64,000 bases of DNA from a virus (IMGVR_UViG_3300020043_005956:2241-66240), one strand, 5' to 3'. Shown: positions 14,065 through 58,569, counted from the first letter of the stretch. A program made the numbers and translations. Notes: generated by a model not told the origin, from the letters alone.

Positions 14065-14265
14065 GACTTTGGCAAAAAAATGCACATATTGAAAGAAACC
14101 CAATACCTTTAGACCATTTGGCATTAAGACAACAGCAAGGAGTATTTGACCCCCTGAACAAAGATAAAAACCCGATTTCACCCGCAAAAAATTATAAAAA
14201 ACAACCCAAAATAAATTTGTTTGTTTCATAAAACTTCATAACTTTGCGTAAAGGATTTAACTTTT

Positions 14266-14433: not shown

Positions 14434-14552
14434 TCGCAACAGGAATCATTGGAAGGATTGGGGATATGGATGAAAACTTTGTAGGCTTGTGGATTGAAGG
14501 AAAAAGTCGGTTGCAAGTGTACCTAATTGGGGAGGTTGAATTAATTGATTAA
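14412..14552 (+). CDS. small hypothetical protein (46 aa)
   Basis: translated by hand: MPRYAKVIATGIIGRIGD... Confidence 0.45.
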   Translation: MPRYAKVIATGIIGRIGDMDENFVGLWIEGKSRLQVYLIGEVELID

Positions 14553-14556
14553 AGCT

Positions 14557-14784
14557 ATGAACATAACTATCAAAGCCGATTCCGAAGATATAAGGATTTA
14601 CGTTGATAAATTGCTTCATTTGAGGTTTCCAAGGGATAAAAACATAATTGTGCATAGTTGGATTGAAGGGCATAGCAAAGCTTTCTACATTAGCCTCGAT
14701 GTCAATGGAAGGAAGGAAGTTGTTATTTATGACAGCAAGGAAATGTGGGAGAAGGTGTTGAAAGTATTAGATTGTGAATTGTAA
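14557..14784 (+). CDS. hypothetical protein
   Basis: ORF track 14545..14784. Confidence 0.6.
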   Translation: MNITIKADSEDIRIYVDKLLHLRFPRDKNIIVHSWIEGHSKAFYISLDVNGRKEVVIYDSKEMWEKVLKVLDCEL

Positions 14785-27729: not shown

Positions 27730-28442
27730 GCGAAATTCACGGAACATACGCAAAGGTTAGTATGGATGAGGTAATCCAACAAGCTAAATCTGAACTTGAT
27801 ATTGAGAACACAACCCAATGGGATTTGTTTTTGCAAGTTGAGGGAGAGGAAGCTGTTAGAAATCTTAATTGCCAATCGCTTGTTTACAAAAAGCAAGAAT
27901 GTATTGATATTTGCGAGGGGCAAACTCCGTTGCCTTGCGGTTTTTATAAGTTTTTAGGATTAAGGTACTACGACCAAAGGTTGGGTAATTGCCAAAAAGT
28001 TATTTATGCAGACACAATGTTTTTAAATGCAGAGGGTTGCAACAATTGGCCCTTCCCTGCGGGGGAAACAAGTTGGTTTACCAAAAATTGGTTTACCGCA
28101 ATGCAGATAGTAAACGGAAAGATGAGTTTTGTTAATGGACACGGTTTTGACAAAGCTGTTATTGCTTACCTTGGCTTTAATGTGGACGAGAATGGACACC
28201 TTATAATATACGAACACTACGTTAGGGCTGTTAAGGCGTATATGAAATATCGTTTTATGATGAAAAAGCCGCAGAACTATGTTCGTATGCAAATTGACGA
28301 TGCTATGGCAGAATGGAAGGCGCAAAAAAGATTTGTTAAAGGGGAGGACAATGCCTTTAATGCTGATTTATACAGAAGGGAGATTATGGCAGCAATGACC
28401 GCTTTAATTGTTTCACCGACAATACCAACTTGGACTTATTAA
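27726..28442 (+). CDS. tail ring/tubular protein
   Basis: AYLGFNVDENGHLII...AVKAYM motif; position. Confidence 0.65.
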   Translation: MSEIHGTYAKVSMDEVIQQAKSELDIENTTQWDLFLQVEGEEAVRNLNCQSLVYKKQECIDICEGQTPLPCGFYKFLGLRYYDQRLGNCQKVIYADTMFLNAEGCNNWPFPAGETSWFTKNWFTAMQIVNGKMSFVNGHGFDKAVIAYLGFNVDENGHLIIYEHYVRAVKAYMKYRFMMKKPQNYVRMQIDDAMAEWKAQKRFVKGEDNAFNADLYRREIMAAMTALIVSPTIPTWTY

Positions 28443-28443
28443 G

Positions 28444-33946: not shown

Positions 33947-35497
33947 ATGGCATACATAGTTTCACCATACGCAGGAGCAGCAGAATTTCCAAGCGACAAT
34001 CTACCAGCGCAGCTTTTATCACAAGGTTTGCAAGCTGGCTACGCTCGCCGTATGAAAGAAATGGAGAACAAGATGAAGTTGCAGGAAGAGGGGAAAAAGG
34101 CTTTTGATGAAGCGTATAAATACGCAAAGCTTGATTTAAGCAAGGTTGACCCAGTTTACCACGATGAGTTAAAGAGTTTATCGGATAATTTGGGTAAAAA
34201 TATGGTTGCTGCTTATCAAGACAACCCAAGAGCGTTTTCAAACAATACCGCCATTGCAGAAGATATTCGAAGGTTAAACACGCTTAAAACCGAGTATGAA
34301 GCTCTAAGTTCTGATATACAAAAGGCGGATGACGCTCAAAGGCAACTTAAACAAAAAGGAGACTTTGATATTACCCCTACTGAAAATAGAAAAATACTTG
34401 ATGCTTTGCGAGTTGAAAAAGACCCTGCTAAAAGGAAGGAATTATTTGAAGCATTTAAAGGTGGGTATAGAGGCGGCGAATTAGATGCAGTAACGCTTAA
34501 AGTTGCACCTTATAGGCTTAATGATTGGGCTCAAGAGGTTGAAAACTTGCAAAGGCAAGTTAACTTAAGGGAAGAGCCTTATCCACAAAAGGAATTTGTT
34601 ATTAAAACAGTAACAAATAACCCCAAGAAGCTAAAAGATATTGCAGATGAAATTGGCGTTGACGCTTCAACACCCGAAGGAATGGCGCAAGTTGAAAAAG
34701 CACTTGCATCTTATTTGACGGAAAACAAAAAACCTGCTCCGCAAGGTGGGGGTTATGGATTAGGTTATGCTTCTTCCATAACAAATCCAACACCTGGCAG
34801 AGTGGATTTTGGTATGACTACGGAAAAACAAGGGGGAGGAACAATGACGGCACAATCTTCTGTTACCTCGCCCGCTCAAATTACTTTTTCTACTGCAATG
34901 CCAACAACGCTTGTTCAACCATCAGTTTCATATGGTCTTGAAAATGGTAAAACATTAAATACCGATGCTGATTTTAAGGATAACAAGCTACTTGAGGTTG
35001 CTTTGAGTAAAGTTGCTTTATTGCCTGTATATAAAAAGGGCGTTACAAGGAAAGGCGGGGTTGACGTTTCGGGAGAAATTGTTGACGACTTGAATCTTAA
35101 TGATGAAAGATTAAATGGCAAATATGAGTATAAGGTTTTTGCAATAGGCCAAGGAACGAAGGAAGTTAGTGCAGGTAGCAGAGGCAAGGAATTGATAACA
35201 AAAGATTTGTATATCCCAATAAATCAAGTAAAAGACGCAGTTTGGGATAAACTTGCCCAATCAGAAAAGGAAAGCGTTATGAAGAACATTTTTGATATGA
35301 AGGAATTGGCGAGAGATTATAATTCTAAATTAACTCCACCTTCAAGTAGCGGAAAGCCTGCTGCTGAAAAGCCGAAGGGTGAGGCAAATAAAAACGTAGG
35401 AAAAATAATTGTTTTAGTAAACGGCAAACAAGTTCAAATACCAGAAGACCAATGGGAAAACCTTAGAAAAAAATATCCAAATGCAACAAGACAATAA
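33947..35497 (+). CDS. internal virion/ejection protein
   Basis: helical N-terminus; position before giant cargo genes. Confidence 0.65.
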   Translation: MAYIVSPYAGAAEFPSDNLPAQLLSQGLQAGYARRMKEMENKMKLQEEGKKAFDEAYKYAKLDLSKVDPVYHDELKSLSDNLGKNMVAAYQDNPRAFSNNTAIAEDIRRLNTLKTEYEALSSDIQKADDAQRQLKQKGDFDITPTENRKILDALRVEKDPAKRKELFEAFKGGYRGGELDAVTLKVAPYRLNDWAQEVENLQRQVNLREEPYPQKEFVIKTVTNNPKKLKDIADEIGVDASTPEGMAQVEKALASYLTENKKPAPQGGGYGLGYASSITNPTPGRVDFGMTTEKQGGGTMTAQSSVTSPAQITFSTAMPTTLVQPSVSYGLENGKTLNTDADFKDNKLLEVALSKVALLPVYKKGVTRKGGVDVSGEIVDDLNLNDERLNGKYEYKVFAIGQGTKEVSAGSRGKELITKDLYIPINQVKDAVWDKLAQSEKESVMKNIFDMKELARDYNSKLTPPSSSGKPAAEKPKGEANKNVGKIIVLVNGKQVQIPEDQWENLRKKYPNATRQ

Positions 35498-38400
35498 AGA
35501 TGATTTTTCAGAATTTGGAGGAGTTGTAATTGGCGACGCCCCAAAAAGTGATGATTTTTCAGAATTTGGAGGAGTTGTTATTGGCGACGCCCCTCAAAAA
35601 AAAAATTCTGTTTCAACCACTTCACCGATTGGTGGCAAAGTTGGGGCATCCGCAATCCCTTCTACTGGAAATGAAGTTGCTGGTTTGCTTGGTGTCAAAC
35701 CGATTAAGCCAACTCAATACGCTACTCCTACCCCATTGGTTGAAAAGGCAAAAACGATTGTCGAGCCTGTTGGAAAAAATTATGGACTAAGACCCGATGG
35801 CACAAAAAAAGATGTAGGTTATTTCGGTGAACTAAAAACAAAAAGCGGCAATTCTGTTACTGAATATTCGTTTGGAACTTCGGATGTCAACGGAAAAGAA
35901 ATGGACATTCCAAGTCTTGTTCCAACATTAACTCCGCAAGAGAAGCAATATGTCTTAGACAGGGCAGAAAAAGACGAACCACTTGGGCGTGATGCAATTG
36001 GTAATTCGATTTATAAAAAAGCCGTTGACCATGCAAAGCAAAGGCTGAAGGAAGGAAAAAGCCCGTTTTATAGTTCGGAGGAAGCAAAAAAAGTTTCTAC
36101 GGGTGATGAAGTTGCCAACTTATTAGGCGTAAGAACTGCACCTAAAACTTTAGGCGAACTCGGCCAAACAACCTTGCCATTAGCAAAAGACCAAAAAGGT
36201 TCTGCGCAGCGTGTTACTGCTCTGTACGAGCAAAAAGCTAAAAAAACCGACGATTTTATTCAAGAAAAGAAAAAGCTGAATGAACTTGAGGCGAAATTAA
36301 ATCAAGCCAAAAAGGACTCAGAAGAATACAATGTGATTGTTGAAGATTTCAACAAAGCCGTCGAAAGCCACAATAAAAAACTTGCCGAAAGAGAAATTCT
36401 TGCCAATGAAATAAAGGCCGCCGAAATGGGGTACAGGGAAAAGTATGGAGAAGGCAATAGGCTTGGATATTTTTATAATTCTTTCTTGAAAGGAATTGGC
36501 GGGATGAGTTCGGGCGTTGCTGATGCTTTTTTTAACGTTGCAAGAAATATTCCTGGCGTTGTTGCACCTTCAATGGAAGGGGAAGATATAACCGAGTTTA
36601 GGAAACAAATAGAACCATCCATAAGGGAAGGATTGAAAGAAAAAGTTGGGGTGGGAATTGTTCCAGAAAAAGAAAAGAAGTACAATGATGAATTTTGGAC
36701 TTCTGCGATTGGTGGGTTAACGGCTTCTGTTCCTGCAATGATAGCCCCATACGGAAGCGGACTAATTGCTCAAGCCTACGATGCAGGGCTTGAATCAATT
36801 AACTCTATTGAAGAAGGTCAAAAGCTACCCGAAACGACGAAAACAATATTTGCATCAAGTGTTGGATTGGCGCAAGGGATGCTTGAAAAGTATGGACTTG
36901 ATAAGATTTTCGGCAAACAATCGGCGGCTGTTTCAAAAAAACTTGCTGCTGATGTTATTCAGAAAGCATTAGCAAGTGGTGAAAAGACAATAACTAAAGA
37001 ATCGTTTGAGGCTGCTTTAAAGCAAAGCGTGTCGGGGCTAAAAGACAAAATAGTAAAAGCGGGAGGAAAAATTGGAGAGGCTGTTGCAGTAGAATTTAGC
37101 ACAGGGGCGGCGCAGGAGGCGTCAACAATTGCGGCTGAAAGATTATTGAATGCAAGTCAAGGAAAGGATGTTTTCGAGCCAACGTCTTGGGGAGAAACGA
37201 CAGGAAGGATTTTGTATGCAGGTTCACAAGAAGCTGTTGGGGGAGGGCTACTTGGTGCTGCTTCTGCTCCATTTAGCAAGACCAGAAATTACATAGCTGA
37301 AAAAGTTGCAGATGCGAAAACGCAAGAGGATTATCAGGCGTTAAGAAAAGAGTTTACTGAAAACGTAAGCCCTGAACAGGCAGATGCTGCAAACAAAATT
37401 ATTGACTATTACGCCAATGTGAACTCAAAAATACCTGACAATGTACCTAACAGAAAAGAGGTGATTGAAAAGGTTGTTGAAAGGGACGATATAAAAGAAG
37501 AGATTGCAAGGAAACAGCAAGAGTTGGAGCAAGTTGACGAGGCTTTTCGGCCTAAGATACAAGAGGAAATTGACGCATTAAACGGAAGGGTTGCGGAGTT
37601 AAATGAAGAAATTGCCAATCCTGTCATAGCCCAAGAAGCTGTTGTAGAAGAACAACCATCCCAACCAATCATCACGAAAAACACCACTCCAACAGACGAA
37701 AAGTATGGAACTATTGATAGGGGTGACGGCAAAGGTGTTATAGACTTAACAAGGGCTGAATACGAAGCGGAGATTGCAAAGCAGCAACCCGCCCAAGCCT
37801 TTGAGGAAATTCCAGAAATTTCTGAAGAAAAAAAATCTTTAGAAAGCGAGATTTTATCAGAAGAAGAATTTATAAATAAAACAAAAAATAACAGAAATTT
37901 TTTCAGAAAGATATTGGATAAAATTGGAGGTGTTAGTTATGATAAATATTTAAAGAATGCAAAAGAAAAATTGGCTTTATTAGAAAAAAACCCTTTAGCT
38001 TATTTTGAAAAAGAATTAAATGCTGAAATTGAATGGGGTAAAAAAGACCCAAGTGATATTAATGAAGGACTTATAGAATACTACAAGGGTGCTATCGAAA
38101 AATTAAAAAATCAACAACAAAAACAGCCTACCGCCGAAGAAGTTGTTGTTGACGAATCCCCCGCTTTTGAAACTGACCAAACTGAGGCGGCACAACCGAT
38201 TGAATTAAGTGTTGGGGAAGAAGCCATAACGCCCCAAGAAGAGCAACCTACTCAACAAGGCGAAGAAAACGTAAATCCTGCCTTAAACGACGTTGAGAGT
38301 AAGGCTAAAGCGTTGGAGCTTAAAAATGAAGGTAAAGCTGATACTCCAACAAAAGAAAATGTTACAGAAAGGCTTAGTATTAATAATCCATTTTATAAAA

Positions 38401-41084
38401 AAGTAGAAGACGCTTTAGTTAAATTAGGATTAATAGAGAAATATAACGCTCAAACCAAGACAGGAGATGTGGTTGGTGGGTATGTTCAGGAAACTTCTGA
38501 TGGAGGTTTTAGTGCAGGGAAAATGCTTTTTAGCAAAAATGGTGAAATAAGTTATTTAGATGGTAATGGGAATAAAGTTTCTTTTGATAAAAACGGTAAT
38601 GTAATATCTGAAAACACTAAACAAGTTGCACAACAAGCTAAAAAAACAGAAATTGAAGCAACTAAATTAAGTATTACATCTCTTGAAAAAACAAGAGATA
38701 GCGAAGCGTTTAAATACAAAGAAGCAACGGAAACAGATATATTAGGCAATAAGAAAAAGGTAAAAAGATTAAAAACACCACAAGAGCTAAAAGAAAGTAC
38801 AGACAAAATAAATAATGCTATTGATAAAGCCAAAGCAAGGCTTGTTGAATTGGAAAATTCAGAATCCCCTGTTGAGAGTACAGCTAAGGCGTTGGAAAAA
38901 GAATTTAATAAAGGAAGTGTTTGGTTGCCAAGTGTAGAAATGAATGTGGGAGATAATCCAGCAAAAAAAATCTCCGAAGCCTACCACGCCGATAAAGCCG
39001 CAGAAAAGGAAACCGAATTAACAAAAGCAGTTGAAAAATTATTAACCACAAATACAAACCAAAATGAACAAAAAACCAAAATTGGGGAGCGGGGAACGCT
39101 TCAAGAAAATGACCAACAAGTTGGAGAAGGAGGGCAAGTCCAAGGAATCAGCGAAGAAAATCGCCGCATCAGCGGGGATGAAAGCCTACGGCAAAGCCAA
39201 GATGCAGAAGATGGCACAGGCGGGCAAGAAGAAAATGTAACGGAACAAGGGGGTGTAACAGCCCCCGTTACCGAAGAAAAGATTGAAGCAACTGCCACCC
39301 AAGCTAACATTAAACCAAAGAACCTTCGTGACTTATACAACGTCAATAGAACGCTTTTTGGGCAAAATAAAGTAAGGTCACTTGCCAATGCGGTTATTAT
39401 GGACAAGATGATTGGCGCAATGGCAAAACGTGCAGGGGTTATCAAAGCAGAAATGTATGAAAGGTTGGAGTTTAGGAAGGCGAGCGAAGAAGAGTTGCCA
39501 CAAGGTGTTAAAATGCAAGTTGACGCTTGGCACGGCAGCCCATATCAATTTGACAAATTCACAACCGAAAAGATAGGCACGGGCGAAGGCGCACAAGCTT
39601 TTGGGTGGGGATTGTATTTTACGGATTTGGAGAGTATCGCAAGAGGATATGCGCAAAACCTTGCAACTTTAAATATAAAAACAACAACTCAACAAATTTC
39701 AGATGCAGTAAAAAAGTTTAACATAAAAAACGGTTTGCCAAGTAATTATAACTATTCAATACTTGCAGATGTTTTAGTGTCAAACAATATGAATATTGAC
39801 AAAGCAATTGATTTTTACAATAAAAGCATACAAAAAAGAACAGAAGATTATAATAATCCTGAAAACAAATTCAGGGCTGGATATTTGTTGGAGTCAATAA
39901 AAGACGAGCAATCTGAATTAAAAACTTTAATTGGACTAAAGGAAAACAATACTTCTATTAAGCCTCCAGAAAGGTTGCTATACAAGGTTTCACTTCATAA
40001 TGGAAAGAAACCAAGCGAATATACTTGGTTAGAGTGGGATAAGCCTTTAACAAAAGAGCAAAGAAATATAATTATAAAAGCTATTGAAGATAAAGACTTT
40101 AAAACAAGGACTGCTTATGGAAACCCTTTAGAAGTTGTTGACACTTTAGGTACAACTGGCAAACAAGTTTACGAATCACTTGCTTTTGAATTTGGTCAAA
40201 AACAAGCTTCGTTACTTCTTTTAGAAAATGGAATTGATGGCGTTAAATATCCAGCCGAAAGCATAGCAAGAGCCGCAACATCTGACACGGCAAGAGGTTT
40301 TAACTATGTAGTATTCGATGAAAACGCAGTAAGTATAGAAGAAGTAATTAAGTTCCAAAAAGACGCTAACAAAGCAAGGGGCGCAGCTATGGTGAATATA
40401 GATGGAACTGCCATCATCTACGCTATAACCGACCCTAACGTATCAACTCCTTTACACGAACTTGCTCACGTTTTTGAACACTACCTTAAAGACTACGAAA
40501 GGGAAACAATCATTCGTAACGCAAAAACAAATGGGTGGACAACCGAAACAAGTGAATATTTTGCAAGGGGCTTTGAAAAATATCTTGCCGATGGAGTTGC
40601 CCCAAGTGCGGAAATGAAACGTATATTTGAGCGTTTCAAAGAATGGCTTACCGAAATTTACAATGGAGTAACGGGAAGCGAAATAAACATACCTCTCAAC
40701 GATGAAATGCGTGCCATATACGCAAAAATGTTGGGCGAAGAAGAAGTTGCTAAAACACAACCAAATGAAACAAAAACAGAACAAGAAAAGCCCTTGCTGG
40801 AAGGGGTACGAAATGGTGGGAATGAAGCCCAAGTCGGGCAAGAAAGTGCCGAACTGCGTGCCGAAGCCAAAAACCAAGAAGAAGTAAAAGCAACCATTGC
40901 AGATGCCGTAGCGAAGTTTTATGCTATTGAAGGCAAAGGTTCTCAAAAGCGTGAGGCAGCAAAAGCGTATAGGCAAACTTTAGAAAAAATGCCAACGGTA
41001 AAAAACATTTTTGACAATATAAAGCCTATATTTGCACAACTTGAAAGAGAAGGAATTATAACAAAATCTAAAGAATGTCCATAA
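35481..41084 (+). CDS. giant polyvalent cargo protein with ART-PolyVal-like and HExxH segments
   Basis: AWHGSPYQFDKF...GEGAQAFGWGLYFT...GIDGVKY...NYVVFD; TPLHELAHVF. Confidence 0.8.
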   Translation: MQQDNKDDFSEFGGVVIGDAPKSDDFSEFGGVVIGDAPQKKNSVSTTSPIGGKVGASAIPSTGNEVAGLLGVKPIKPTQYATPTPLVEKAKTIVEPVGKNYGLRPDGTKKDVGYFGELKTKSGNSVTEYSFGTSDVNGKEMDIPSLVPTLTPQEKQYVLDRAEKDEPLGRDAIGNSIYKKAVDHAKQRLKEGKSPFYSSEEAKKVSTGDEVANLLGVRTAPKTLGELGQTTLPLAKDQKGSAQRVTALYEQKAKKTDDFIQEKKKLNELEAKLNQAKKDSEEYNVIVEDFNKAVESHNKKLAEREILANEIKAAEMGYREKYGEGNRLGYFYNSFLKGIGGMSSGVADAFFNVARNIPGVVAPSMEGEDITEFRKQIEPSIREGLKEKVGVGIVPEKEKKYNDEFWTSAIGGLTASVPAMIAPYGSGLIAQAYDAGLESINSIEEGQKLPETTKTIFASSVGLAQGMLEKYGLDKIFGKQSAAVSKKLAADVIQKALASGEKTITKESFEAALKQSVSGLKDKIVKAGGKIGEAVAVEFSTGAAQEASTIAAERLLNASQGKDVFEPTSWGETTGRILYAGSQEAVGGGLLGAASAPFSKTRNYIAEKVADAKTQEDYQALRKEFTENVSPEQADAANKIIDYYANVNSKIPDNVPNRKEVIEKVVERDDIKEEIARKQQELEQVDEAFRPKIQEEIDALNGRVAELNEEIANPVIAQEAVVEEQPSQPIITKNTTPTDEKYGTIDRGDGKGVIDLTRAEYEAEIAKQQPAQAFEEIPEISEEKKSLESEILSEEEFINKTKNNRNFFRKILDKIGGVSYDKYLKNAKEKLALLEKNPLAYFEKELNAEIEWGKKDPSDINEGLIEYYKGAIEKLKNQQQKQPTAEEVVVDESPAFETDQTEAAQPIELSVGEEAITPQEEQPTQQGEENVNPALNDVESKAKALELKNEGKADTPTKENVTERLSINNPFYKKVEDALVKLGLIEKYNAQTKTGDVVGGYVQETSDGGFSAGKMLFSKNGEISYLDGNGNKVSFDKNGNVISENTKQVAQQAKKTEIEATKLSITSLEKTRDSEAFKYKEATETDILGNKKKVKRLKTPQELKESTDKINNAIDKAKARLVELENSESPVESTAKALEKEFNKGSVWLPSVEMNVGDNPAKKISEAYHADKAAEKETELTKAVEKLLTTNTNQNEQKTKIGERGTLQENDQQVGEGGQVQGISEENRRISGDESLRQSQDAEDGTGGQEENVTEQGGVTAPVTEEKIEATATQANIKPKNLRDLYNVNRTLFGQNKVRSLANAVIMDKMIGAMAKRAGVIKAEMYERLEFRKASEEELPQGVKMQVDAWHGSPYQFDKFTTEKIGTGEGAQAFGWGLYFTDLESIARGYAQNLATLNIKTTTQQISDAVKKFNIKNGLPSNYNYSILADVLVSNNMNIDKAIDFYNKSIQKRTEDYNNPENKFRAGYLLESIKDEQSELKTLIGLKENNTSIKPPERLLYKVSLHNGKKPSEYTWLEWDKPLTKEQRNIIIKAIEDKDFKTRTAYGNPLEVVDTLGTTGKQVYESLAFEFGQKQASLLLLENGIDGVKYPAESIARAATSDTARGFNYVVFDENAVSIEEVIKFQKDANKARGAAMVNIDGTAIIYAITDPNVSTPLHELAHVFEHYLKDYERETIIRNAKTNGWTTETSEYFARGFEKYLADGVAPSAEMKRIFERFKEWLTEIYNGVTGSEINIPLNDEMRAIYAKMLGEEEVAKTQPNETKTEQEKPLLEGVRNGGNEAQVGQESAELRAEAKNQEEVKATIADAVAKFYAIEGKGSQKREAAKAYRQTLEKMPTVKNIFDNIKPIFAQLEREGIITKSKECP
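35500..35592 (+). repeat. 51-bp tandem duplication encoding DDFSEFGGVVIGDAP twice
   Basis: gatgatttttcagaatttggaggagttgtnattggcgacgcccc twice. Confidence 0.9.
39064..39240 (+). CDS. overprinted small basic protein (58 aa, +1 frame)
   Basis: MNKKPKLGSGERFKK...AKKIAASAGMKAYGKAKMQKMAQAGKKKM; A/C-rich start context. Confidence 0.7.
   Translation: MNKKPKLGSGERFKKMTNKLEKEGKSKESAKKIAASAGMKAYGKAKMQKMAQAGKKKM
40765..40887 (+). CDS. overprinted small basic protein (40 aa, +1 frame)
   Basis: MKQKQNKKSPCWKGYEMVGMKPKSGKKVPNCVPKPKTKKK. Confidence 0.72.
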   Translation: MKQKQNKKSPCWKGYEMVGMKPKSGKKVPNCVPKPKTKKK

Positions 41085-41612: not shown

Positions 41613-44600
41613 ATGGCTTGCGAGGTTAAATACCAAGGGCAGACACTTTCTTTTGAAGAGTTTGCCGAAAAGTTGCATAATGGACTTTTGGACGAATTTA
41701 TTGCCCAAGGTGTTGTTAAGAATGTACCAACCATAAAATCAATTCAAGATGCCGTACAAAAGCAAAGCGCAGAGGGCGTTCTTTCACGCCAACAAGGAAA
41801 AGTTGGAGAAGCAGGGGGTGAACGTCAAGGAATGGGACAAGGCAAGCAAGGGCAAGAAGCTGCCAAGCCGAGCAAAGAAGAAATAACTTCCGCAGAAGCA
41901 ACGGTTGCTCTTGATGAAGAAACCGAACTATTGCTTGAAGGACTTGCCGCAGAAAGGAGAAGGGCGGGCAAATATACAGTTGACGGAGTAACATATACAA
42001 GAAACGAAAAAGGACAAGGTATTGTTTCGGAGAAAGGTGGGTATATTAGGTTTACAAGCGAACCTGGCGGTGGTGGCGTTGTCGTTCCTTTTAGATACAA
42101 ACTTGCTGAAGCAAAAAGAGTTCAGCCTTCACACGAAGGAGGTTTGAGAAATCCAAATTTCTTTATACCCGAAGGTCAACCAAAAAATAGAAACGACCAA
42201 GCAAGTTTGCAAGCAGAAGATGATTTTGCAAACAACCCAAGGTTTGATGAGCTTGGAGAAGATTCAGGGGCGTATAAAGGTGCGCCTGTTGCAAATGAAA
42301 GGGATGAGATTATTCAAGGGAACAGCAGGGGTGCTGGAATTAAAAAAGGATATGCTATTGGCAATAAAAAGTACAAGCAAGACTTAGCTGCAAATGCAGA
42401 GAAATTTGGATTTACCAAAGAACAAGTTGAAAGTATGGAAAACCCAATGCTTGTTCGTGAGGTTATTGCAACTGATGAAAAAGCTATTGAACTTGGAAAC
42501 TACGATGTAAAAGACCTTGAAACCGCAGGAAAAAGAAGGATTGACCCTTCTGCTCTTGTTCGTAGGCTTCCTTCAAAAGTTAAAGCGAGCCTTGCTAAAG
42601 TTATTTCAGCAGGGGAAACGATTAAAGAATCTATTAAAGAAAATGCGGATGAGATTTATCAACTTATACGTCCGTATATCAATACAAGTATTGCCAACAC
42701 TATAATCACAAATGGCAAATTAAATTCTGTTGGTATTGAGGACGTTGAGGGCTTATTTACGCAGTTCTTGTTTCAGAATGGCGACCCAAACCTTCCTCAA
42801 ATGTTTGAAGGTTTGTCTAATACACAACGTGAGGGCATTAAAAAGGCTTTACCATACTTGCTAAGTGCAGGAGCAGGCAAAAGTATCATACCCGATGTTC
42901 AAGAAGCGATAATTGCTTTGCATTATTTTAGGTCAAGCGGTGAACAAAGTTTTGCTGCGTGGGCTAATCAAATTGACATTAATACAGGTCAATCCAAAAA
43001 GGATATGTTTAGCCCTTTGGCTTTGAAACTTGCCGAAAATTTCAACAAGGCAACAAGTCAAAACGAAATTGCAGGTATTCCGCAAAAAGGTGGAGAGGCG
43101 AGCAGTTTTGCTAAGTATAGCCAATTAACGCAAGGAACGGAAGGCGGGTTATTTGAAGAAGCCCAAGAGGGTATGTCAAGGCAAGATGCGGTAAAGGAAG
43201 CGTTTGGAGTTGAATATACGCCAAGAAAAGGATATACAAGTGCTGCTAAGTTTGAGGAAAGTGAAGCTAAAAGAAAGGAAATAGAGAAAGAAAAGGCTGA
43301 AAAGGAAAAGGCTAAACAAACAAAGAAGGAGATAAAAGAAAAGCTTAAAACAGCTCAAGAAGCATTAAACAGAACAAAAGAGCAACTTTCTGAAATTGAA
43401 AGACTGAAACAAAGTGCTGCTTCAAATTTAGAAAAAATACTTTCAAAAATTGGTGGAATACAAAATATAACACCACAAGAAAGAACAAAGCTTGTTGAGG
43501 ATTTAAAAAATATTATAAAGGATTTAACAGCCTTAACTTATTTAGAAATAAAAAATCTACTTGCTCCGATTTTAACAAGAAAGGGTTTCTCTGAACTTGA
43601 AGCAGAGGATATAATAAATGAAGCAGCAAGTGATTTCATTTCAGAAGAAGATGCTTATATTGGTTTAACAAACGAATACGATAAAGCACAAAGGGCGGCA
43701 AGGGGATTAGACCCAATAGCAAAAGCCGCAAGGCAAACAAACCAAGTGGTTTGGGATAGAACAGTTGAGCGCATACAAAATGGAAATATTGTATTAAGGG
43801 ATAAGACCAACACAGGGCTTATTTCAAAATTAGCCACAGGAGAAATAGAAGCAATTAGCCCTGAAATACAAGCCGCTATTTTATATGATAGGATATATCT
43901 TCAAAATGCTAAAGAGGCGTATGTAAAAAAACTTGCCGAGCAAGGTGCTGTTATAACAAACGAGGAAAGGTTAAATATATTAGCTCAATTAGCTGAAATT
44001 GATGCACATATTCAAGAAAACGAATTAGCCAATGCGAATGTTGGAAGAACCTGGGGAAGAACAGGCGTATTTAGGCAGGTTTTAGCGGCAAGAGATTATA
44101 CATTAAAAGGTGTAATTTCAAGAGCGAAGGCAATGAATGGAGGTGCATCGTTAAGCACAGAGCAAGAAGCGAAGCTTGTTAAGTTAACCGAGCAATTTGC
44201 TGAACTGCAAAAGGATTTAGACAAAATTCAAAAGGCTTTTGATGAGCAATTAAAAATAGAAAAAGAGATAGCTCGGAAAGAAGGATATAACAAAGCAAAA
44301 ATGGAGGTTTCTTCTGTTCCTTCTTCTTCTACTATAAAGGAAAAGTCAAAAGAACTTGCCAATAAGCTTAGGGCTGCAAAAATTACAAGTTCTACATACA
44401 CCTTTAGTTCTGTTGTTCCAATACCTCCAACGGTTGTAAACGTGGGTATAGAGGCTGCGGCAAAGTCTATTGAAACTGTTGGTACTGTTGCTGATGCAAT
44501 AGCAAAGGGTATTGAAGCTATAAAAAATGAGGCATCAGGTTGGTATAAAAACTTGACACCACAAGAAAAGCAAAGGTTCGATAATTGGTTTGGAGGATTT

Positions 44601-47600
44601 GTAAACGAAAAACTTGCAGAGCCAAAACAAGAAAAGAGGGGGGCGAAATCTACTGATGAACTTCTTGTTGACCTTGCTGTAAAAGCGGATGGAGTATTAA
44701 CTGACGAAAGCTGGGAGCTTGAGCCGTTGTTAAAAAATATTCTCAAGCAAGAGGTTATCAATGGGGCGGAAACACTTGATGAAGTTGCTGAAAAGGTTTT
44801 TGATTTTCTTTCCAATTCAGTTCCTAATCTTGATATTGAAGATATAAAAGACTTGATGAGTGGTTATGGTAGTTTTAAAGAACTTAGCAAAGACCCGCTT
44901 GTTGAAAAGATAAGAAAGCTAAGAAACCTTGGAAGGCTAAATGGTAGGTTGAGGGATGTCAAGGAAAGGATGAAATTGCCAAAAAGAACAGGAAGGGAAA
45001 TTGCAAAATTAGATACCGAAGCTCGTGCAATAAACAAGGAAATTGGCAGACTGATAAAGGAGTTGGGTTTGGCATCAGAACCAACAGAAGAAGAAAAGAT
45101 AAACAAATGGAAGAGCCAAAGGGATGCTGTTGTTCAAAGGTTAAAAAACAAAATAGAGGACTTAAATAGACAAAAAGAACAAAAGCAACGAGATGCCAAA
45201 GTTAAAAAAAGTCAAATAACGGACGATGTAATAAAAGACCTTCAAGACCAAATTGAATCGCTTGAAAACACATTGAGCAATATACCAGAGGTTAAGATAA
45301 GTGATGCAGAGAAGAAAGTTGAAAGCAAAATTGTTGACTTAGAAAATAAAATTACCGAGGCCAAAAGAAAGATAAGAGAAAACGATTTAAGTATAAAATC
45401 TTTTGAAAAGGTTACAAGCCCTGAAATAGAAAGTTTGCAAAATGAGTTGTCTGACTTAAATTCAACTCTTGCCAAAATGAGGGAGGAAAATAAAACCTCT
45501 GTTGAGAAATTAGCAGAAGCTCAAAAAAGACTTGACTTATTAGCAAAGGCGGAAATAAAAAGGCTTGAAGAAATTAGAAACAAATTAATTTTAGAAGGAC
45601 TTACTGACGAGGAAGTTAAAGTTTCAACGACACAAAAACTTGGCGAATTATTTGGAATAGCTAAAACCAAAAAAGCCAGTTTAGCGCAAAGGGGCGATGC
45701 GCTACAAGCAACTATTGACCAACTAAAAAGGGATATAAACGATTTAATACCATCGGAAGCGAAAGAGCAAGCTTTAATTGATAAAGCAATAAAAAGAAGA
45801 GAAGCGGTTTTAAAAGCATTAGAAGAAAAGCTTGCGAAGGGTAATTTTGAAAAAAGAAAAACAAGAATTATACCTTACACAAAAGAACTTGCAGAGGTCA
45901 ATGCGAAGATTGAAGAAACAAAACAAAAGATAGATTTTGAAATTGAAAAAATAAGACTTGCAAATAGGACATTTTGGACAAGATTGGCTGAAAATCTTTT
46001 TGATGTTTTAAGTTTGCCAAAATCATTGGTAGCAAGTATTGACTTGTCAGCCCCGCTTAGGCAAGGTATCGTTTATGCTTATACAAAGCCTGGAACATTT
46101 TTAAAAGCATTTTTCGAAATGCACAAGTTTGCCTTTAATAAATCCGCTTATGAAAATTGGCAAAAATCTGTAAAGGCAGACCCAAGATATGTTGAGTTCA
46201 CAAAACAGTACGGGTTGTATATGGCAGAAGAGAGTGGCAAGATGAGCGCAAAAGAAGAAATGTTTGTTTCTAAATTTGTAGGTGCTATTAAAAAAATACC
46301 TGTATACGGTCAACTTTTGGCAGGAACAGAAAGGGCGTATATTGGTTTTTTAAATAAACTACGTTGGGACGTTTTCAACTCCTATGTAGATATGGTTAAT
46401 GATATGCCATTAACTGTTGAAGAAAGACAGCAAGAGTTAAAAGAGCTTGCTAAACTTGTAAACAATACAACGGGCAGAGGCTCTTTAGGGGTGCTTTCGG
46501 GAGCTAAAAAACCGTTAAATGTTTTATTTTTCTCTCCAAGTCTTGTTGCTTCAAGGTTTCATCCGTTTACTGCTGCCGCAAGGATGTTATTTCCTGGCGA
46601 CAAACCAATGCCTCGTGTGGCAAGAAACCAAACTATTGAAACCTATGCTAAATTCTTTGGTGGATTAGCCTTAACTATGTTTTTGATTAAATTTGGACTT
46701 GGGGATGATGATGATAAAGATGTTGAGTTTGAACCAATAAGTTCGGACTTTTGGAAAATAAGGCTTGAGGATATTAGGACTGATTTAACGGGCGGCTATA
46801 TTCAACCTTTTGTTGTATTGGCTAAAATTTTTGGTGGTTCAAAAAATGCAAACACAGGCGAGGTAAAGAAATTTGGTGATGAAGGCTATGGGGCAACGAC
46901 AAGAATGGATTTGCTTGAAACTTTTTTTGCAAATAAATTAAACCCTACCGCCTCTTTGTTTTATAAAGAATACTTAGTAGGTGTGGAGGGCAAGAAAAGG
47001 GATAGAAACAAGCTGTATGAGTATATGTTTGGCGAAATACCTAACAACGACCTTAATATAGGAGAAACTGCATTCAACCTTACAACTCCGTTATATTTAA
47101 GAGATATGGCAGAGATAATAAATGAAGAATCAAAATATGCTCCAATAGTAGTTCCTCTCGCTTTATATGGTTCGGGAATAAATAAATTTGGAGGAAAGAC
47201 TATGCTTACTCCAAATACAAAAGAATACATAAAAGCAAAGACCTATTCTATTGTTCCTGCAAGAACAAGCACGGATAAGAAAATTGATTTTTATATTTTC
47301 AAAAAAGATGGAAGTGTTATAAATACAGAAAAGAATGAGTTTTTAAATAACCAAAGTTTAGAGAAATATAACAGCTACGCCAATGAGAATTACAAAAAAA
47401 TGGTTTTAAATTTAAACGATAAGTTTATGCAAAGTTTAAATGAAAGCCAAAGGGCGGAGGTGATGAAAACGGTTAAACAAGAGGCTGATAAAATTGCAGA
47501 GATTCAGATAAATATGGACATGCAAAAGACTGTTGTTTTGCCGAGCGAGGCGGCTAAAATGAAAAAGGATTTTGAAAAAGAAATTCAATTTTTTTATAAT

Positions 47601-47870
47601 GATTTAAAAAAGTATCAAAATCCAAATGAAGAAAACAGGGCTTACGATTTTGTTAAATTTAAAGAATCAATAAAAGGGCAAGGGGAGGCAATGGAAAAAT
47701 ACTTATTTAAACCCAAGAATATTTCTTCTGGGCAGTTTGATAAAATAAATCAAAAAGTTGGATTTGTTTATAAGAACAAAAAAGAGCTTGCCGAAGCGTA
47801 TATTGAAGCATTAAAGTCAACCAATAAAACAAAGCAGCAAAGGGAACTTATAAAAGCAGTTGAAGATTAA
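41613..47870 (+). CDS. giant polyvalent cargo protein with DdrB-like ParB domain and long coiled coil
   Basis: RYKLAEA...QPSH...QPKNRND...GAPVAN...IIQGNSR; SIDLSAPLRQG in the C-terminal part. Confidence 0.78.
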   Translation: MACEVKYQGQTLSFEEFAEKLHNGLLDEFIAQGVVKNVPTIKSIQDAVQKQSAEGVLSRQQGKVGEAGGERQGMGQGKQGQEAAKPSKEEITSAEATVALDEETELLLEGLAAERRRAGKYTVDGVTYTRNEKGQGIVSEKGGYIRFTSEPGGGGVVVPFRYKLAEAKRVQPSHEGGLRNPNFFIPEGQPKNRNDQASLQAEDDFANNPRFDELGEDSGAYKGAPVANERDEIIQGNSRGAGIKKGYAIGNKKYKQDLAANAEKFGFTKEQVESMENPMLVREVIATDEKAIELGNYDVKDLETAGKRRIDPSALVRRLPSKVKASLAKVISAGETIKESIKENADEIYQLIRPYINTSIANTIITNGKLNSVGIEDVEGLFTQFLFQNGDPNLPQMFEGLSNTQREGIKKALPYLLSAGAGKSIIPDVQEAIIALHYFRSSGEQSFAAWANQIDINTGQSKKDMFSPLALKLAENFNKATSQNEIAGIPQKGGEASSFAKYSQLTQGTEGGLFEEAQEGMSRQDAVKEAFGVEYTPRKGYTSAAKFEESEAKRKEIEKEKAEKEKAKQTKKEIKEKLKTAQEALNRTKEQLSEIERLKQSAASNLEKILSKIGGIQNITPQERTKLVEDLKNIIKDLTALTYLEIKNLLAPILTRKGFSELEAEDIINEAASDFISEEDAYIGLTNEYDKAQRAARGLDPIAKAARQTNQVVWDRTVERIQNGNIVLRDKTNTGLISKLATGEIEAISPEIQAAILYDRIYLQNAKEAYVKKLAEQGAVITNEERLNILAQLAEIDAHIQENELANANVGRTWGRTGVFRQVLAARDYTLKGVISRAKAMNGGASLSTEQEAKLVKLTEQFAELQKDLDKIQKAFDEQLKIEKEIARKEGYNKAKMEVSSVPSSSTIKEKSKELANKLRAAKITSSTYTFSSVVPIPPTVVNVGIEAAAKSIETVGTVADAIAKGIEAIKNEASGWYKNLTPQEKQRFDNWFGGFVNEKLAEPKQEKRGAKSTDELLVDLAVKADGVLTDESWELEPLLKNILKQEVINGAETLDEVAEKVFDFLSNSVPNLDIEDIKDLMSGYGSFKELSKDPLVEKIRKLRNLGRLNGRLRDVKERMKLPKRTGREIAKLDTEARAINKEIGRLIKELGLASEPTEEEKINKWKSQRDAVVQRLKNKIEDLNRQKEQKQRDAKVKKSQITDDVIKDLQDQIESLENTLSNIPEVKISDAEKKVESKIVDLENKITEAKRKIRENDLSIKSFEKVTSPEIESLQNELSDLNSTLAKMREENKTSVEKLAEAQKRLDLLAKAEIKRLEEIRNKLILEGLTDEEVKVSTTQKLGELFGIAKTKKASLAQRGDALQATIDQLKRDINDLIPSEAKEQALIDKAIKRREAVLKALEEKLAKGNFEKRKTRIIPYTKELAEVNAKIEETKQKIDFEIEKIRLANRTFWTRLAENLFDVLSLPKSLVASIDLSAPLRQGIVYAYTKPGTFLKAFFEMHKFAFNKSAYENWQKSVKADPRYVEFTKQYGLYMAEESGKMSAKEEMFVSKFVGAIKKIPVYGQLLAGTERAYIGFLNKLRWDVFNSYVDMVNDMPLTVEERQQELKELAKLVNNTTGRGSLGVLSGAKKPLNVLFFSPSLVASRFHPFTAAARMLFPGDKPMPRVARNQTIETYAKFFGGLALTMFLIKFGLGDDDDKDVEFEPISSDFWKIRLEDIRTDLTGGYIQPFVVLAKIFGGSKNANTGEVKKFGDEGYGATTRMDLLETFFANKLNPTASLFYKEYLVGVEGKKRDRNKLYEYMFGEIPNNDLNIGETAFNLTTPLYLRDMAEIINEESKYAPIVVPLALYGSGINKFGGKTMLTPNTKEYIKAKTYSIVPARTSTDKKIDFYIFKKDGSVINTEKNEFLNNQSLEKYNSYANENYKKMVLNLNDKFMQSLNESQRAEVMKTVKQEADKIAEIQINMDMQKTVVLPSEAAKMKKDFEKEIQFFYNDLKKYQNPNEENRAYDFVKFKESIKGQGEAMEKYLFKPKNISSGQFDKINQKVGFVYKNKKELAEAYIEALKSTNKTKQQRELIKAVED
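41749..41886 (+). CDS. overprinted small basic protein (45 aa, +1 frame)
   Basis: MPYKSKAQRAFFHANKEKLEKQGVNVKEWDKASKGKKLPSRAKKK. Confidence 0.72.
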   Translation: MPYKSKAQRAFFHANKEKLEKQGVNVKEWDKASKGKKLPSRAKKK

Positions 47871-56118: not shown

Positions 56119-56218
56119 TAACTTTGCACAAAGTATAAACCTGTCGGTTGTTATTGACGTATCCACTTAGACAGGCTGCCCCTGAAGTTTCTTTGATTAC
56201 TTTGGGGGTTTCTTTTTT
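56119..56218 (+). ncRNA. candidate small RNA with own promoter and terminator
   Basis: TAACTTTG at 56119-56126; CCTGTC/GACAGG stem; 11-bp terminator stem plus T tract; no ATG-initiated ORF. Confidence 0.6.
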
Positions 56219-56231
56219 GTGGAAGGGGTGG

Positions 56232-56261
56232 AAAAAACAAAAGCCACCGATTAAAGTGGCT
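56232..56261 (-). terminator. terminator of the leftward operon
   Basis: AGCCAC/GTGGCT stem followed by TTTGTTTTTT on the minus strand. Confidence 0.65.
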
Positions 56262-56301
56262 CCTGTCCTGTTTACCTAATTACCTGTGGCAAAGGTAGGG
56301 A

Positions 56302-56592
56302 TTATTTTACTTCAAATTTAACTTTCTTTCCATGTTCAAACATCGTGTTTTGCTTGAACCTACATTTGCCCGATTTTCCGTTGCAAGGTTGGTATGCAAA
56401 ACAGGCTTTTCCGCATCCATCGTGTTCGGATATCTCCTCTGCTGCCCTACACCAAAAATACTTGTCGTTCTTTTCGGGTACAGCCTCAAATAGTTCAATT
56501 TCGGTCAATCCTTGCTCTTTGGCATCGTTCAAATGATAGTCCAACGTGTAGCACATTTCCGAGTTTTCGGTAAGAAAGTAGTATTTAGGCAT
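56302..56592 (-). CDS. Cys-rich small protein
   Basis: FWC...CGKACFAYQPCNGKSGKCRF. Confidence 0.7.
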   Translation of the reverse strand: MPKYYFLTENSEMCYTLDYHLNDAKEQGLTEIELFEAVPEKNDKYFWCRAAEEISEHDGCGKACFAYQPCNGKSGKCRFKQNTMFEHGKKVKFEVK

Positions 56593-56656
56593 TGTTTATT
56601 TGTTTATGTTAGGTATGTGCCATAAAGTGGCTTATGTCTGGTAGTTAGCACCAATT

Positions 56657-56851
56657 TTAAGAAGTGCTACCATCAACAATTTCATCATTTAAAAACTTTT
56701 CTACGCTTTCTCTTCTTGGTGTTTTCAAAACTACGATTTGACTCCCATCGGTGTCGTGTAAATGAAGTAACACTTGTGCTTCAAATTGCATACCTACATC
56801 ACCATTTTTAGGTGAAATAGTTACTACTTTTAATTCGGTTTCTTGTATCAT
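56657..56851 (-). CDS. cassette-borne hypothetical protein
   Basis: fills cassette 1 almost exactly. Confidence 0.7.
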   Translation of the reverse strand: MIQETELKVVTISPKNGDVGMQFEAQVLLHLHDTDGSQIVVLKTPRRESVEKFLNDEIVDGSTS

Positions 56852-56985
56852 AAAAAACTGGTGCTAACATTGGTTTTACGCAAGTGGGGGTTAGCGTTTA
56901 ACCCATCTTACGTGCTTTTTATAATCTTTTGTGCAGGTTGAAAGTTTTGTGCTATTTAGCCCCACCTGCGTAAAGCCAAATCACG

Positions 56986-57192
56986 TTATAGGGCATTTTG
57001 AGAACCCAACAACTCAACTTTAATAATCCTGTCATCTTCCGAAAAATTAATCGGACTATCATTAAAGTTATCTGAAATGAACTTGTAAGCAGCCATAGGG
57101 TCGCAATTAAATTCATCATGAAATGTTTTTTCATCAATCATATCGGTGCAATCAAACTCCACCGTTACTTTAAAACCAATATTTTTTTCCAT
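56986..57192 (-). CDS. cassette-borne hypothetical protein
   Basis: fills cassette 2; stop codon lies within the GTTA core. Confidence 0.7.
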   Translation of the reverse strand: MEKNIGFKVTVEFDCTDMIDEKTFHDEFNCDPMAAYKFISDNFNDSPINFSEDDRIIKVELLGSQNAL

Positions 57193-57350
57193 TGTAATTA
57201 AATTAAAAACGCCCTATAACAAACAATAACCGCAAGTGGGGGCGATATACCACATTGAAGCTATTTTGCACCTAAGAAAGTTTATCGTCAAGTGAAAGGT
57301 TGGTACATTAAACCCCACCTGACGGTTATTGTCAGCCGTTATCGGTAATT

Positions 57351-57560
57351 TTAACGAGCCGCTATTTCAAGTTCACCACCATTTTGACTAACGAATGTTT
57401 CTTTACAATTTCTGCAACGATAGTATTTTAAGTTTCCATACCAATCTGTGTTCATATCTGAAATAAGTTTCAGCTTCTTTTCACAGTCAGGACATAAAAC
57501 TACCGATAACACATTATTTGCGTCAGTGGGGCTTTCGTTTTTTAAATTATTATTTTCCAT
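57351..57560 (-). CDS. cassette-borne zinc-ribbon protein
   Basis: CPDC...CRNC; N-terminus is read through the attC remnant. Confidence 0.7.
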   Translation of the reverse strand: MENNNLKNESPTDANNVLSVVLCPDCEKKLKLISDMNTDWYGNLKYYRCRNCKETFVSQNGGELEIAAR

Positions 57561-57570
57561 GTTTCAATTT

Positions 57571-57801
57571 TTACTTAATTTTAATCATCACCCTATCCCC
57601 GACCTGCCTTACAAACTGCCCTTTGATGGTAAGGACAGAATCTTTTCCAACTTTACCGAGGTTGTAACCGATTGGGATTTGATTGTTTATGATTGACTTT
57701 GGCTGCGAGTGGTTCTTGCTGCAAATCGTTGGCATTGATAGCCAAATAAACAATGCAACTGCAATGTAACTGACCAAAGCGAACTTAGCAAATGTTTCCA
57801 T
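57571..57801 (-). CDS. membrane-anchored hypothetical protein
   Basis: ORF track 57571..57819; probable start METFAK. Confidence 0.55.
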   Translation of the reverse strand: METFAKFALVSYIAVALFIWLSMPTICSKNHSQPKSIINNQIPIGYNLGKVGKDSVLTIKGQFVRQVGDRVMIKIK

Positions 57802-57802
57802 C

Positions 57803-58111
57803 CTACACCTCCTTTTCAATGATTAATTTCTCGATTTTCTTTACCATCATTTCTCTTATTGTTGGGTTTTCGTTTGCGATGGTTTTGAAGTTGCTGGAAA
57901 ATTGAAAATTGGTAAACTCGTTAAAAAAGTTAACATATTTTTCAATGGCTCTAAATCCAGCTTGAAGCATATCATTTTCTGTTTGCTCAATTGCAATTTC
58001 TGCATCAATACCTTCCAGCCTATCCCTTTCAATCTTCGCAACCTTCAATATCTGGTCATAGTGGCAAGGTTGGCAGCGTACTTGGATGCGTTTGGTTCTT
58101 GTTTGCTTCAT
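57803..58111 (-). CDS. hypothetical protein with RHH-like N-terminus
   Basis: RTKRIQVRC...YDQILKVAK. Confidence 0.55.
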   Translation of the reverse strand: MKQTRTKRIQVRCQPCHYDQILKVAKIERDRLEGIDAEIAIEQTENDMLQAGFRAIEKYVNFFNEFTNFQFSSNFKTIANENPTIREMMVKKIEKLIIEKEV

Positions 58112-58569
58112 GCTTTGTCCTCCTTCAAAGTTACTTGAACACCTTTAACCTCCGATGCAATGGTAAGTAGTTCGGATATGGTAAGTTGCTCGGTTCTAAT
58201 TGGTTTTGCGGTCGTGTGGATAGAAAATCCTGTCAATGCTGATGGATTTTTTGCAATAAAATAATCCTTTCCATCGTCATTGAATTTAGCAACAACGATT
58301 CTTTTGGTAAATATATCAGCATCCCATACTTTCACCTCCATCTCGCAAGGAAATTCAACATCTTCCTCAATGCCAAGTTCGGCTAAGGTTGGGATGTGGT
58401 CGAAGATTTTCCGTTCTTCCTCGGTAAAAGCAATTTTAGTATGAGGCCGCAGTGCAATCTCGTTTTCAATCACTTCATTTAATTCCCTTTTAAACGCTTC
58501 ATTTAGCTGTTTGGCGTTCTTATTAAATTGCCACCAATTAGACCATTTGGTAATAAATTGTTCTTTCAT
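58108..58569 (-). CDS. hypothetical protein
   Basis: ORF track. Confidence 0.6.
   Translation of the reverse strand: MKEQFITKWSNWWQFNKNAKQLNEAFKRELNEVIENEIALRPHTKIAFTEEERKIFDHIPTLAELGIEEDVEFPCEMEVKVWDADIFTKRIVVAKFNDDGKDYFIAKNPSALTGFSIHTTAKPIRTEQLTISELLTIASEVKGVQVTLKEDKA

Follow-up and report, generated by a model that had tools for sequence, protein, structure and literature searches.

How did three small genes, each enclosed by an inverted repeat of one and the same design and set apart by long palindromes, come to lie side by side in a phage genome? The window analysed here is the whole stretch of 64,000 nucleotides, bases 2241–66240 of a 66,240-bp virus record from IMG/VR whose direct terminal repeats measure 121 bp. 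Genes for a large terminase, a portal protein, a primosomal protein and a BT4734-type primase/helicase, together with five tRNA genes, mark the record as that of a phage of Bacteroidota, the primase/helicase being of a type typical of phages of this phylum. The segment from 56644 to 57545 is very probably a three-cassette, recombinase-less array belonging to an integron-like system by which Bacteroidota and their phages capture genes. Elsewhere in the window, the five tRNA genes follow each other on the plus strand at 12747–13135, and a rightward structural block contains very long ORFs at 28408–33300, 35481–41084 and 41613–47870 (1630, 1867 and 2085 aa). A 376-aa protein encoded on the minus strand at 6864–7994 has its match in PHROG 249 (E 1e-50), whose annotation is 'porphyrin biosynthesis'; secondary matches are of ATPase type, and the gene may be an auxiliary metabolic one.

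Anatomy of the array

Transcription is leftward for the genes from 56.3 kb to the window end. The array is located between two conserved genes of the minus strand, a 96-aa gene downstream (56302–56592), which has 88% identity in the relative L260, and an 82-aa gene upstream (57571–57819), to which a 78-aa ORF at L259:7178–7414 is homologous. The plus-strand stretch from 56593 to 56643 forms the backbone junction left of the first cassette, which ends in ...GTCTGGTA just before GTTA and looks like an attI-type border. To the right of it lie three minus-strand ORFs, each bracketed by a 15–16-nt inverted repeat of the form GTTA-N6-ATTTT/AAAAC-N6-TAAC. The preliminary description had reported three units that each start with a core and end with its own inverse core, and all of these repeats were recovered where it had placed them: 56644–56658/56854–56868 around ORF1 (pair I9, 15 nt, 93%), 56985–56999/57206–57220 around ORF2 (I10, 15 nt, 93%) and 57338–57353/57495–57510 around ORF3 (I7, 16 nt, 94%). 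Each pair has a single mismatch, A.C on the plus strand and G.T on the minus strand, which falls at the same position in all three, as had been noticed before, and which is a trait of the whole family of sites described below. Only 10 GTT-started 13-mers in the 64-kb window have a reverse complement with at most one mismatch 40–1200 nt away. Because three of these 10 pairs are the cassette flanks, lie next to each other and alone have the GTTA...TAAC form, a chance origin of the flanking repeats is excluded.

An imperfect palindrome of ~116 nt separates adjacent units. The palindromes that had been described between the units are present at two places, 56870–56889/56960–56979 (I2, 90%) and 57223–57242/57313–57332 (I4, 80%), and to these a third site has to be added, which persists as a left-half remnant after unit 3. 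Both intergenic palindromes contain CGCAAGTGGGGG and CCCCACCTG and have the layout CGCAAGTGGGG...CCCCACCTG with 20-nt arms. Cassette A, read on the plus strand from 56644 to 56988, consists of the core GTTA, ORF1, an R'' box, the site attC1 and the next GTTA. ORF1 (56657–56851, minus strand, 64 aa) has neither a Pfam or PHROG match nor a usable Atlas match. The site attC1 occupies 56856–56997 on the plus strand and scores 134.9 bits (E 4.6e-30) with R1, the covariance model of the family. Its pieces are R'' (56856–56868), the L'' arm (56870–56889), a variable loop, the L' arm (56960–56979), a 5-nt spacer and R' (56985–56997). ORF2 (56986–57192, minus strand, 68 aa) has its stop codon within the GTTA core and likewise lacks a Pfam or PHROG match; its nearest Atlas cluster, 65 viral hypothetical proteins with a score of 0.96, is taken as a lead only. 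It is followed by attC2 (57208–57350, plus strand, 112.3 bits, E 1.1e-24), with R'' at 57208–57220, the L'' arm at 57223–57242, the L' arm with one bulged A at 57313–57332 and R' at 57338–57350.

ORF3 (57351–57560, minus strand) encodes a putative zinc-ribbon protein with a CxxC...CxxC pattern, the zinc-ribbon matches being weak and all under the cut-off. It may start at ATG 57560, giving 69 aa that read through the attC3 remnant, or at GTG 57512 within the R'' box, giving 53 aa. The remnant itself (57498–57545, plus strand, R1 33.3 bits) has an intact R'' (AACTACCGATAAC, 57498–57510) and a decayed L'' arm with CGTCAGTGGGGC at 57521–57532; the loop, L' and R' are gone. The right half of a weak R1 match that spans 57491–57641 is conserved coding sequence of the neighbouring 82-aa gene, and homology to a relative phage resumes at ~57570, so that this right part belongs to the gene and attC3 is a stump. 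A blastn search with the array region and attC1 as queries found nothing meaningful in 50,697 cultured-phage records, and the products of ORF1–3 have no homologue among the other 393 sampled cassette proteins.

The site family and the signature of its cassettes

A scan of IMG/VR with the pattern CAAGTGGGG-N55–85-CCCCACCTG found at least 119 loci. Among the 121 matches listed, 98 are 88–92 nt long, a peak that is far from the flat length distribution expected by chance. AAC and GTT flanks are present in 94 of the 118 listed matches with enough flank, and the 85 distinct sites among these were aligned with the two window sites to give the 87 sequences on which R1 is based. In this alignment AACA, CAAGTGGGG and CCCCACCTG are invariant and CGTT is near-invariant, and a 16-pair stem shows compensatory changes in 7 pairs, one of which is GC in 34 sites, CG in 25 and AU in 21. 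The order along the site is R'' (AAC-N7-AAC), an L'' arm ending in CAAGTGGGG, a ~70-nt loop, an L' arm starting with CCCCACCTG, a 5–6-nt spacer and R' (GTT-N7-ATT), and each cassette has one small gene and one such folded site of ~130 nt. The layout R''-L''...L'-R' with AAC and GTT termini is that of classical attC sites, whose core consensus is GTTRRRY/RYYYAAC. The family core, GTTAnnnGcaAtt/aaCngCnnnTAAC, retains GTT and the purine but not the RRY part, being GTTA followed by variable bases, and the R boxes reach 13 nt with a fixed A/C mismatch. This folded element with covarying stems bears out the earlier assignment of the locus to an integron-type cassette array.

At least 95 phage contigs in IMG/VR contain this site family, and attC1 is 92–97% identical over 114–117 nt to sites of seven other viral loci. 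All three window sites were matched by R1 on the plus strand; the other R1 matches in the window come from the opposite strand of the first two sites (27.1 and 24 bits) and from one further place (9.7 bits, E 3.7). Rfam at its gathering threshold returned only the five tRNAs from the window and no family for the sites. With two intact sites and one remnant in 0.8 kb and no integrase, the locus has the composition by which a CALIN is defined (at least two nearby attC sites, no integrase), the sites having been called by our own R1 model and not by the published attC model. In classical attC sites the recombinogenic bottom strand is marked by an unpaired central spacer and extrahelical bases. 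The sites of the present family have a long hairpin and an asymmetric spacer (1 nt versus 5–6 nt), show the A.C/G.T mismatches and may have a bulged A following CCCCACCTG. The long hairpin of attC1 forms on both strands (energies −22.4 for plus, −19.3 for minus), the energies of attC2 are −19.9 for plus and −22.2 for minus, and a strand preference sought from the fold energies of these two sites gave no consistently favoured strand.

The ends of the cassettes carry a second signature. For 58 cassettes from bacterial arrays and the window, the 13-nt start (GTT plus 10 nt) was compared with the 13 nt before the AAC of the next site. Complementarity extends to 12 of 13 positions in 37 cassettes and to 11 of 13 in a further 14, so that 51 of the 58 have one or the other. 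The mean is 11.4 of 13 between the start and end of a cassette versus 7.2 of 13 between the two flanks of one site. The first 13 nt of each cassette pair with the R'' of its own site, not with that of the adjacent site. In a separate search over 142 phage and 203 bacterial elements, the reverse complement of an element's own R' is present 60–1500 nt away in 49 and 85 of them, respectively, versus partners in 2 of 142 and 0 of 203 when the R' of another element is used as a control. The A at position 11 lies opposite a C in 167 of 183 phage cassettes and 242 of 266 bacterial cassettes. The earlier claim that the inverse core of a cassette is complementary to its own leading core, made for the three units of the window, thus holds for the family at large. 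Judged from the pairing pattern, this complementarity is the footprint expected of units that would have been cut and rejoined at the G|TT of a folded site.

The asymmetry of the site (spacers and loop sequence) allows its strand to be called, the reverse strand giving only 24–27 bits, and orientation was taken as the strand of the longest ORF relative to the model strand of the site. Since the nhmmer calls used for the elements are less sensitive than the covariance model, these tallies cover a subset of the sites. In 82 viral loci the ORF is opposite to the site strand in 171 of 180 cassettes, and in 156 of the 161 cassettes that are filled to at least 60% by the ORF; all three genes in the window are reversed in this way. 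For the bacterial arrays the ORF shares the model strand in 50 of the 52 cassettes fetched and, in the genome-collection loci, in 164 of 214; the 49 reversed 'bacterial' cassettes mostly derive from short contigs of MAGs and group with those of phages. The reversed gene direction, first remarked on in the window alone, is therefore general among the phages. The classical rule that a gene precedes its attC is followed neither in the window nor in the phage loci; as the phage gene is on the strand opposite to that of the bacterial arrays, the site that travels with it sits in front of the gene.

Movement of cassettes and their partner recombinases

Metagenome contigs provide insight into the unit that moves. 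A 1463-nt contig of run X5 is identical to window 56644–56988 (345 nt, 0 differences) and diverges on both sides. Run X10, from another study, shares the left junction and has three different continuations after 56988–56990, and a contig of run X1 keeps the backbone 56610–56647 and has a different sequence after GTTA. From these breakpoints it follows that the mobile unit is GTTA, ORF1, R'' and attC1 up to the next GTTA. Identity ends at 56644 and 56988–56990 for cassette A and at 56647 for the backbone, with a resolution limited to the shared GTTA, and these ends agree with exchange at the G|TT of the core. The site moving with ORF1 lies upstream of the gene start. Independently of this, when homologous phage cassettes from different contexts are compared, the model-right site is the better conserved one and travels with the gene in 10 of 11 pairs, and in all 20 homologous cassette pairs the model-right site is better conserved in 11 and the model-left in 3, two of these three exceptions being one duplicated bacterial cassette. 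In the array of L256, a 171-aa cassette is duplicated with 100% identity (10934–11517 and 14149–14732, model-oriented), and its left-hand site is the better conserved one (0.86 versus 0.58), against the general rule. In the sequencing runs, at most 0.20 of the sampled words of 56200–58200 were present, and no run with the whole phage locus was found.

A related phage shows another kind of change. In IMGVR_UViG_3300044626_000772, the one relative with the same flanking genes, these genes, with 72–88% identity, enclose two unrelated ORFs and no site. Homology breaks off just past the stop codon of the 82-aa gene and is found again from the ATG of the 96-aa gene onward; since these breakpoints are at gene borders and not at GTT, whole-module homologous recombination also shapes the locus. 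Another relative, L003, found via its primase, ends 1 kb short of the array. The 96-aa flanking gene is itself bracketed by a direct repeat, TAAAGTGGCT..., at 56252–56267 and 56623–56638, which is part of small GCCA/TGGC hairpins. In a contig of run X1 56269–56610 is missing and 16 other letters are found instead, so that the 96-aa gene is a separate presence/absence module.

Bacterial relatives of the array are large. Species-representative genomes, searched with a stricter pattern, have at least 120 loci, and those listed are almost all from Bacteroidota (Flavobacterium, Chitinophagales, Cytophagales, Pedobacter, Saprospiraceae and others). With R1, dense same-strand arrays are seen, 13 matches being located in one 7.5-kb contig of Flavobacterium limnosediminis, 82 in F. 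enshiense and 19 in Lacihabitans lacunae; among 228 loci there is none whose sites are divided between the strands. In the F. enshiense arrays (L253, L256, L257 and L258) roughly every second site is of a ~190-nt variant (R1 36–78 bits), which often alternates with a ~160-nt form.

The F. enshiense array begins 670 bp past a 356-aa tyrosine recombinase on the same strand, encoded at L253:3208–4278. Such 'long' recombinases, which have an extra N-terminal domain of ~85 aa and match PF00589 and PF13495, are located upstream of the arrays in eight bacterial loci and run in the same direction as the cassettes. The long recombinase scores 219 bits with NF040815 (XerA/integron integrase; cut-off 220) and 211 with the integron-integrase model TIGR02249 (cut-off 265). 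Overall, the partner recombinases reach 158–211 bits on TIGR02249 in a two-stretch match that skips roughly model positions 180–238, which we take to be where IntI has its extra segment. A 'short' recombinase of ~275 aa shows the same score pattern, is divergent from the site strand and directly adjoins the first cassette in the viral loci L028, L077, L097, L018 and L087 and in the MAG contig L152. The short recombinase of L077, encoded at 5738–6562, has an HNH gene and a large terminase gene as neighbours and is therefore phage-borne. The possibility that the short recombinases are part of an IS91-type element targeting the sites was considered and rejected, the neighbours being HNH and terminase genes in L077 and genes without a Pfam match in L028 and L018, with no transposase there. 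One array of L. lacunae (L254:10840–11751, L255:9459–10616) has two recombinases, a long one at its end and a short one in mid-array, divergent from the adjoining site.

Between the short recombinase and the first cassette of five phage-type loci there is an A/T-rich junction ...(G)TA|GTTA, 35–50 nt from the recombinase start. The left border of the window array, ...GTCTGGTA|GTTA, resembles these junctions and, on this likeness, looks like an attI-type insertion point. A search of the whole 66,240-bp record with PF00589 and TIGR02249 gave no match, extending to the entire phage the earlier remark that no tyrosine recombinase is in the window. The preliminary description had pointed to IntI, supplied as a host integron integrase, and advised a search for intI in the rest of the genome and in candidate hosts. 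None is in the phage record; Xer-like tyrosine recombinases are found beside the Bacteroidota arrays. The IntI assignment itself is not supported, as every partner recombinase found is under the integron-integrase cut-off and is matched without the IntI-specific segment; on these model matches the partners are classed as Xer/IntI-like recombinases that appear to lack that segment, not as canonical IntI. Nor need the enzyme be the host's, because the short recombinase sits in some phages themselves.

For a phage that encodes no recombinase we infer the following mechanism. A tyrosine recombinase supplied in trans would cut at the G|TT of the folded single-stranded site, and cassettes would be freed as circles and inserted at another site or at a GGTA|GTTA junction. 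Its source would be the chromosome of the host for the long form of the recombinase, or a phage that is related or co-infecting for the short form, and the inserted cassettes would be transcribed by the leftward operon of the phage.

Movement in the past is also what a more static reading of the locus supposes. The array could be a fossil, assembled elsewhere, brought in as a block by homologous recombination in the flanking genes and now immobile, a history compatible with integron-like sites. The 66-kb record without a tyrosine recombinase, the third site cut down to a half and the different two-gene module that L259 has between the same flanks, with breaks at gene borders, are in keeping with such a history. 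It is nevertheless the less likely course, though one that deserves weight, because attC1 and attC2 are intact and high-scoring, because cassette A recurs elsewhere with 100% identity over 345 nt, which points to recent exchange at the cores, and because the backbone junction carries another first cassette in run X1.

The repeats might alternatively have nothing to do with recombination. The hairpins would then be RNA processing, stability or termination signals of the leftward operon and the inverted repeats RNA stems. In favour of this, the sites are transcribed together with the phage genes, and in that sense RNA the conserved mismatches become G.U pairs. However, they read A.C in the sense RNA of the bacterial arrays, where they are conserved equally well (242/266); the sites are associated with tyrosine recombinases, identity breaks precisely at GTTA cores and Rfam recognizes no RNA family besides the tRNAs. 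Promoter-like and terminator-like signals show no enrichment over shuffled sequences (6 versus 4.4 ± 2.0 and 2 versus 1.3 ± 1.1) in a scan by sigma-70 rules, which fit Bacteroidota poorly, and inspection by eye of both strands of the site consensus for a Bacteroidota-type promoter motif found none. Together these points make a role in RNA quite improbable. More improbable still is an origin of the sites as miniature transposable elements or REP-like palindromes that a transposase has spread, with the ORFs merely lying between them. The elements are indeed numerous, palindromic and assembly-breaking, and many short Flavobacterium contigs end in them, but their variable flank parts pair across the ORF and not across the element, whose own flanks agree no better than the mean given above. 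All sites of a locus are on one strand, no transposase is found beside the arrays inspected, and the moving unit is a gene with its site.

Cargo and relation to known systems

The phage cassettes are shorter than the bacterial ones (median 340 bp and 90 aa versus 694 bp and 192 aa), and the two sets differ in what they encode. The 148 phage-type cassette proteins include 17 N6_N4_Mtase, 7 C5 DNA_methylase and 2 D12 methylase proteins, 2 with the Acb2/Tad1 hairpin domain, 1 Tad2-like protein and 1 HNH protein, while most have no family match. The 148 bacterial cassette proteins match 110 different families with no methyltransferase or anti-defence bias. By these family matches, the phage cargo is rich in predicted DNA methyltransferases and anti-defence proteins. 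Further matches among the bacterial cassettes are to SLATT_5, Mrr_cat and Beta-lactamase, and the 413-aa protein from the first large cassette past the F. enshiense recombinase (L253:5140–6381) weakly resembles PIN_12 (31.8 bits, cut-off 32). Clustering of 396 cassette proteins gave 313 clusters, 261 of them singletons, and none of the 313 mixes reversed phage-type with forward bacterial cassettes. The earlier suggestion that phages are a source of cassettes for bacteria accordingly finds no backing among these proteins. The cargo pool of the phages would serve counter-defence by orphan DNA methyltransferases and Acb2/Tad1-like and Tad2-like proteins, and ORF1–3 would be members of this pool without a known family.

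A wider proposal is put forward tentatively, as possible rather than probable. Bacteroidota phages may run a mirror-image integron of their own, made of a short Xer-like recombinase, an adjoining A/T-rich ...GTA|GTTA capture site and cassettes in which the folded site comes before the gene. Its cassettes would form a shared, fast-swapping counter-defence library of orphan methyltransferases, Acb2/Tad1-like and Tad2-like sponges and many small unknown proteins, which is kept apart from the host arrays despite one site family. Recombinase-less phages such as the present one would then be clients that borrow the enzyme in co-infection or from the host.

To our knowledge, integrons are regarded as bacterial devices that are nearly absent from Bacteroidota and are defined by IntI. 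Set against that picture, there appears to be a large unrecognised integron-like system in Bacteroidota with a simpler recombinase, whose sites are common in phages, there in a mirror-image layout that carries small genes, among which functions against restriction and defence are enriched. If true, this would provide a mechanism for the rapid turnover of phage counter-defence genes, and the site model would be a sequence handle with which hundreds of candidate anti-defence genes could be harvested from metagenomes, the ORF1–3 proteins being direct candidates.

The nearest precedent is in phages. Qi et al. 2023 (PMC9892861) describe 17 integrase-less attC clusters (CALINs) in virulent phages, with methyltransferase cargo, and phage attC sites that recombined with attI1 under IntI1. 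The attC-bounded cassette arrays, the missing integrase and the methyltransferase cargo are alike in both cases. As described there, the classical attC model served to call their sites and IntI1 to test them, whereas here there is one Bacteroidota site family tied to Xer-like recombinases that seem to lack the IntI segment, with genes systematically reversed and at least 95 phage contigs. The site family is set apart from the 17 CALINs by that description, and phages of theirs, for example Polaribacter phage P12002L, may hold it. For the same phylum, the parts consulted of the IntegronFinder 2.0 survey (PMC9024848) list nothing for Bacteroidetes beyond In0 elements and a single complete integron, that of Salinibacter ruber, and do not mention arrays such as those found here in Flavobacterium, Chitinophagales, Cytophagales and Pedobacter. 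A full-text literature search, the supplements of Qi et al. aside, returned nothing on these Flavobacterium arrays, the Xer-like partner or reversed phage cassettes. Integrase-less attC clusters in phages are thus already known, while no published account was found of this site family, of its recombinase or of the mirror-image layout.

Among integrons, there is a resemblance to sedentary chromosomal integrons such as the Vibrio superintegron, which has ~125-nt repeats with TAAC...GTTA ends, tens of cassettes and diverse cargo. The likeness includes the long homogeneous sites, the TAAC...GTTA ends, the large diverse arrays and the complementarity between the start of a cassette and its inverse core. 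The differences are that the recombinase here seems to be without the IntI-specific domain, that its bacterial form has the ~85-aa N-terminal extra and runs in the same direction as the cassettes, and that the R boxes here are 13 nt with a fixed mismatch. Archaeal integrons with XerA-like integrases are said to have been described by Ghaly et al. in 2022; they belong to another domain of life and are likened here by description, the best NCBIfam model for the present recombinases being NF040815, 'XerA/integron integrase'. Small accessory genes flanked by repeated sites also occur in the promoter-early stem-loop modules of the hyperplastic regions of T4-type phages and in the pdif modules of Acinetobacter plasmids, which use Xer recombinases and 28-bp double-stranded dif sites. 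The sites of the present family are neither promoters nor 28-bp dif sites, but 130-nt folded hairpins with cassette-specific R boxes.
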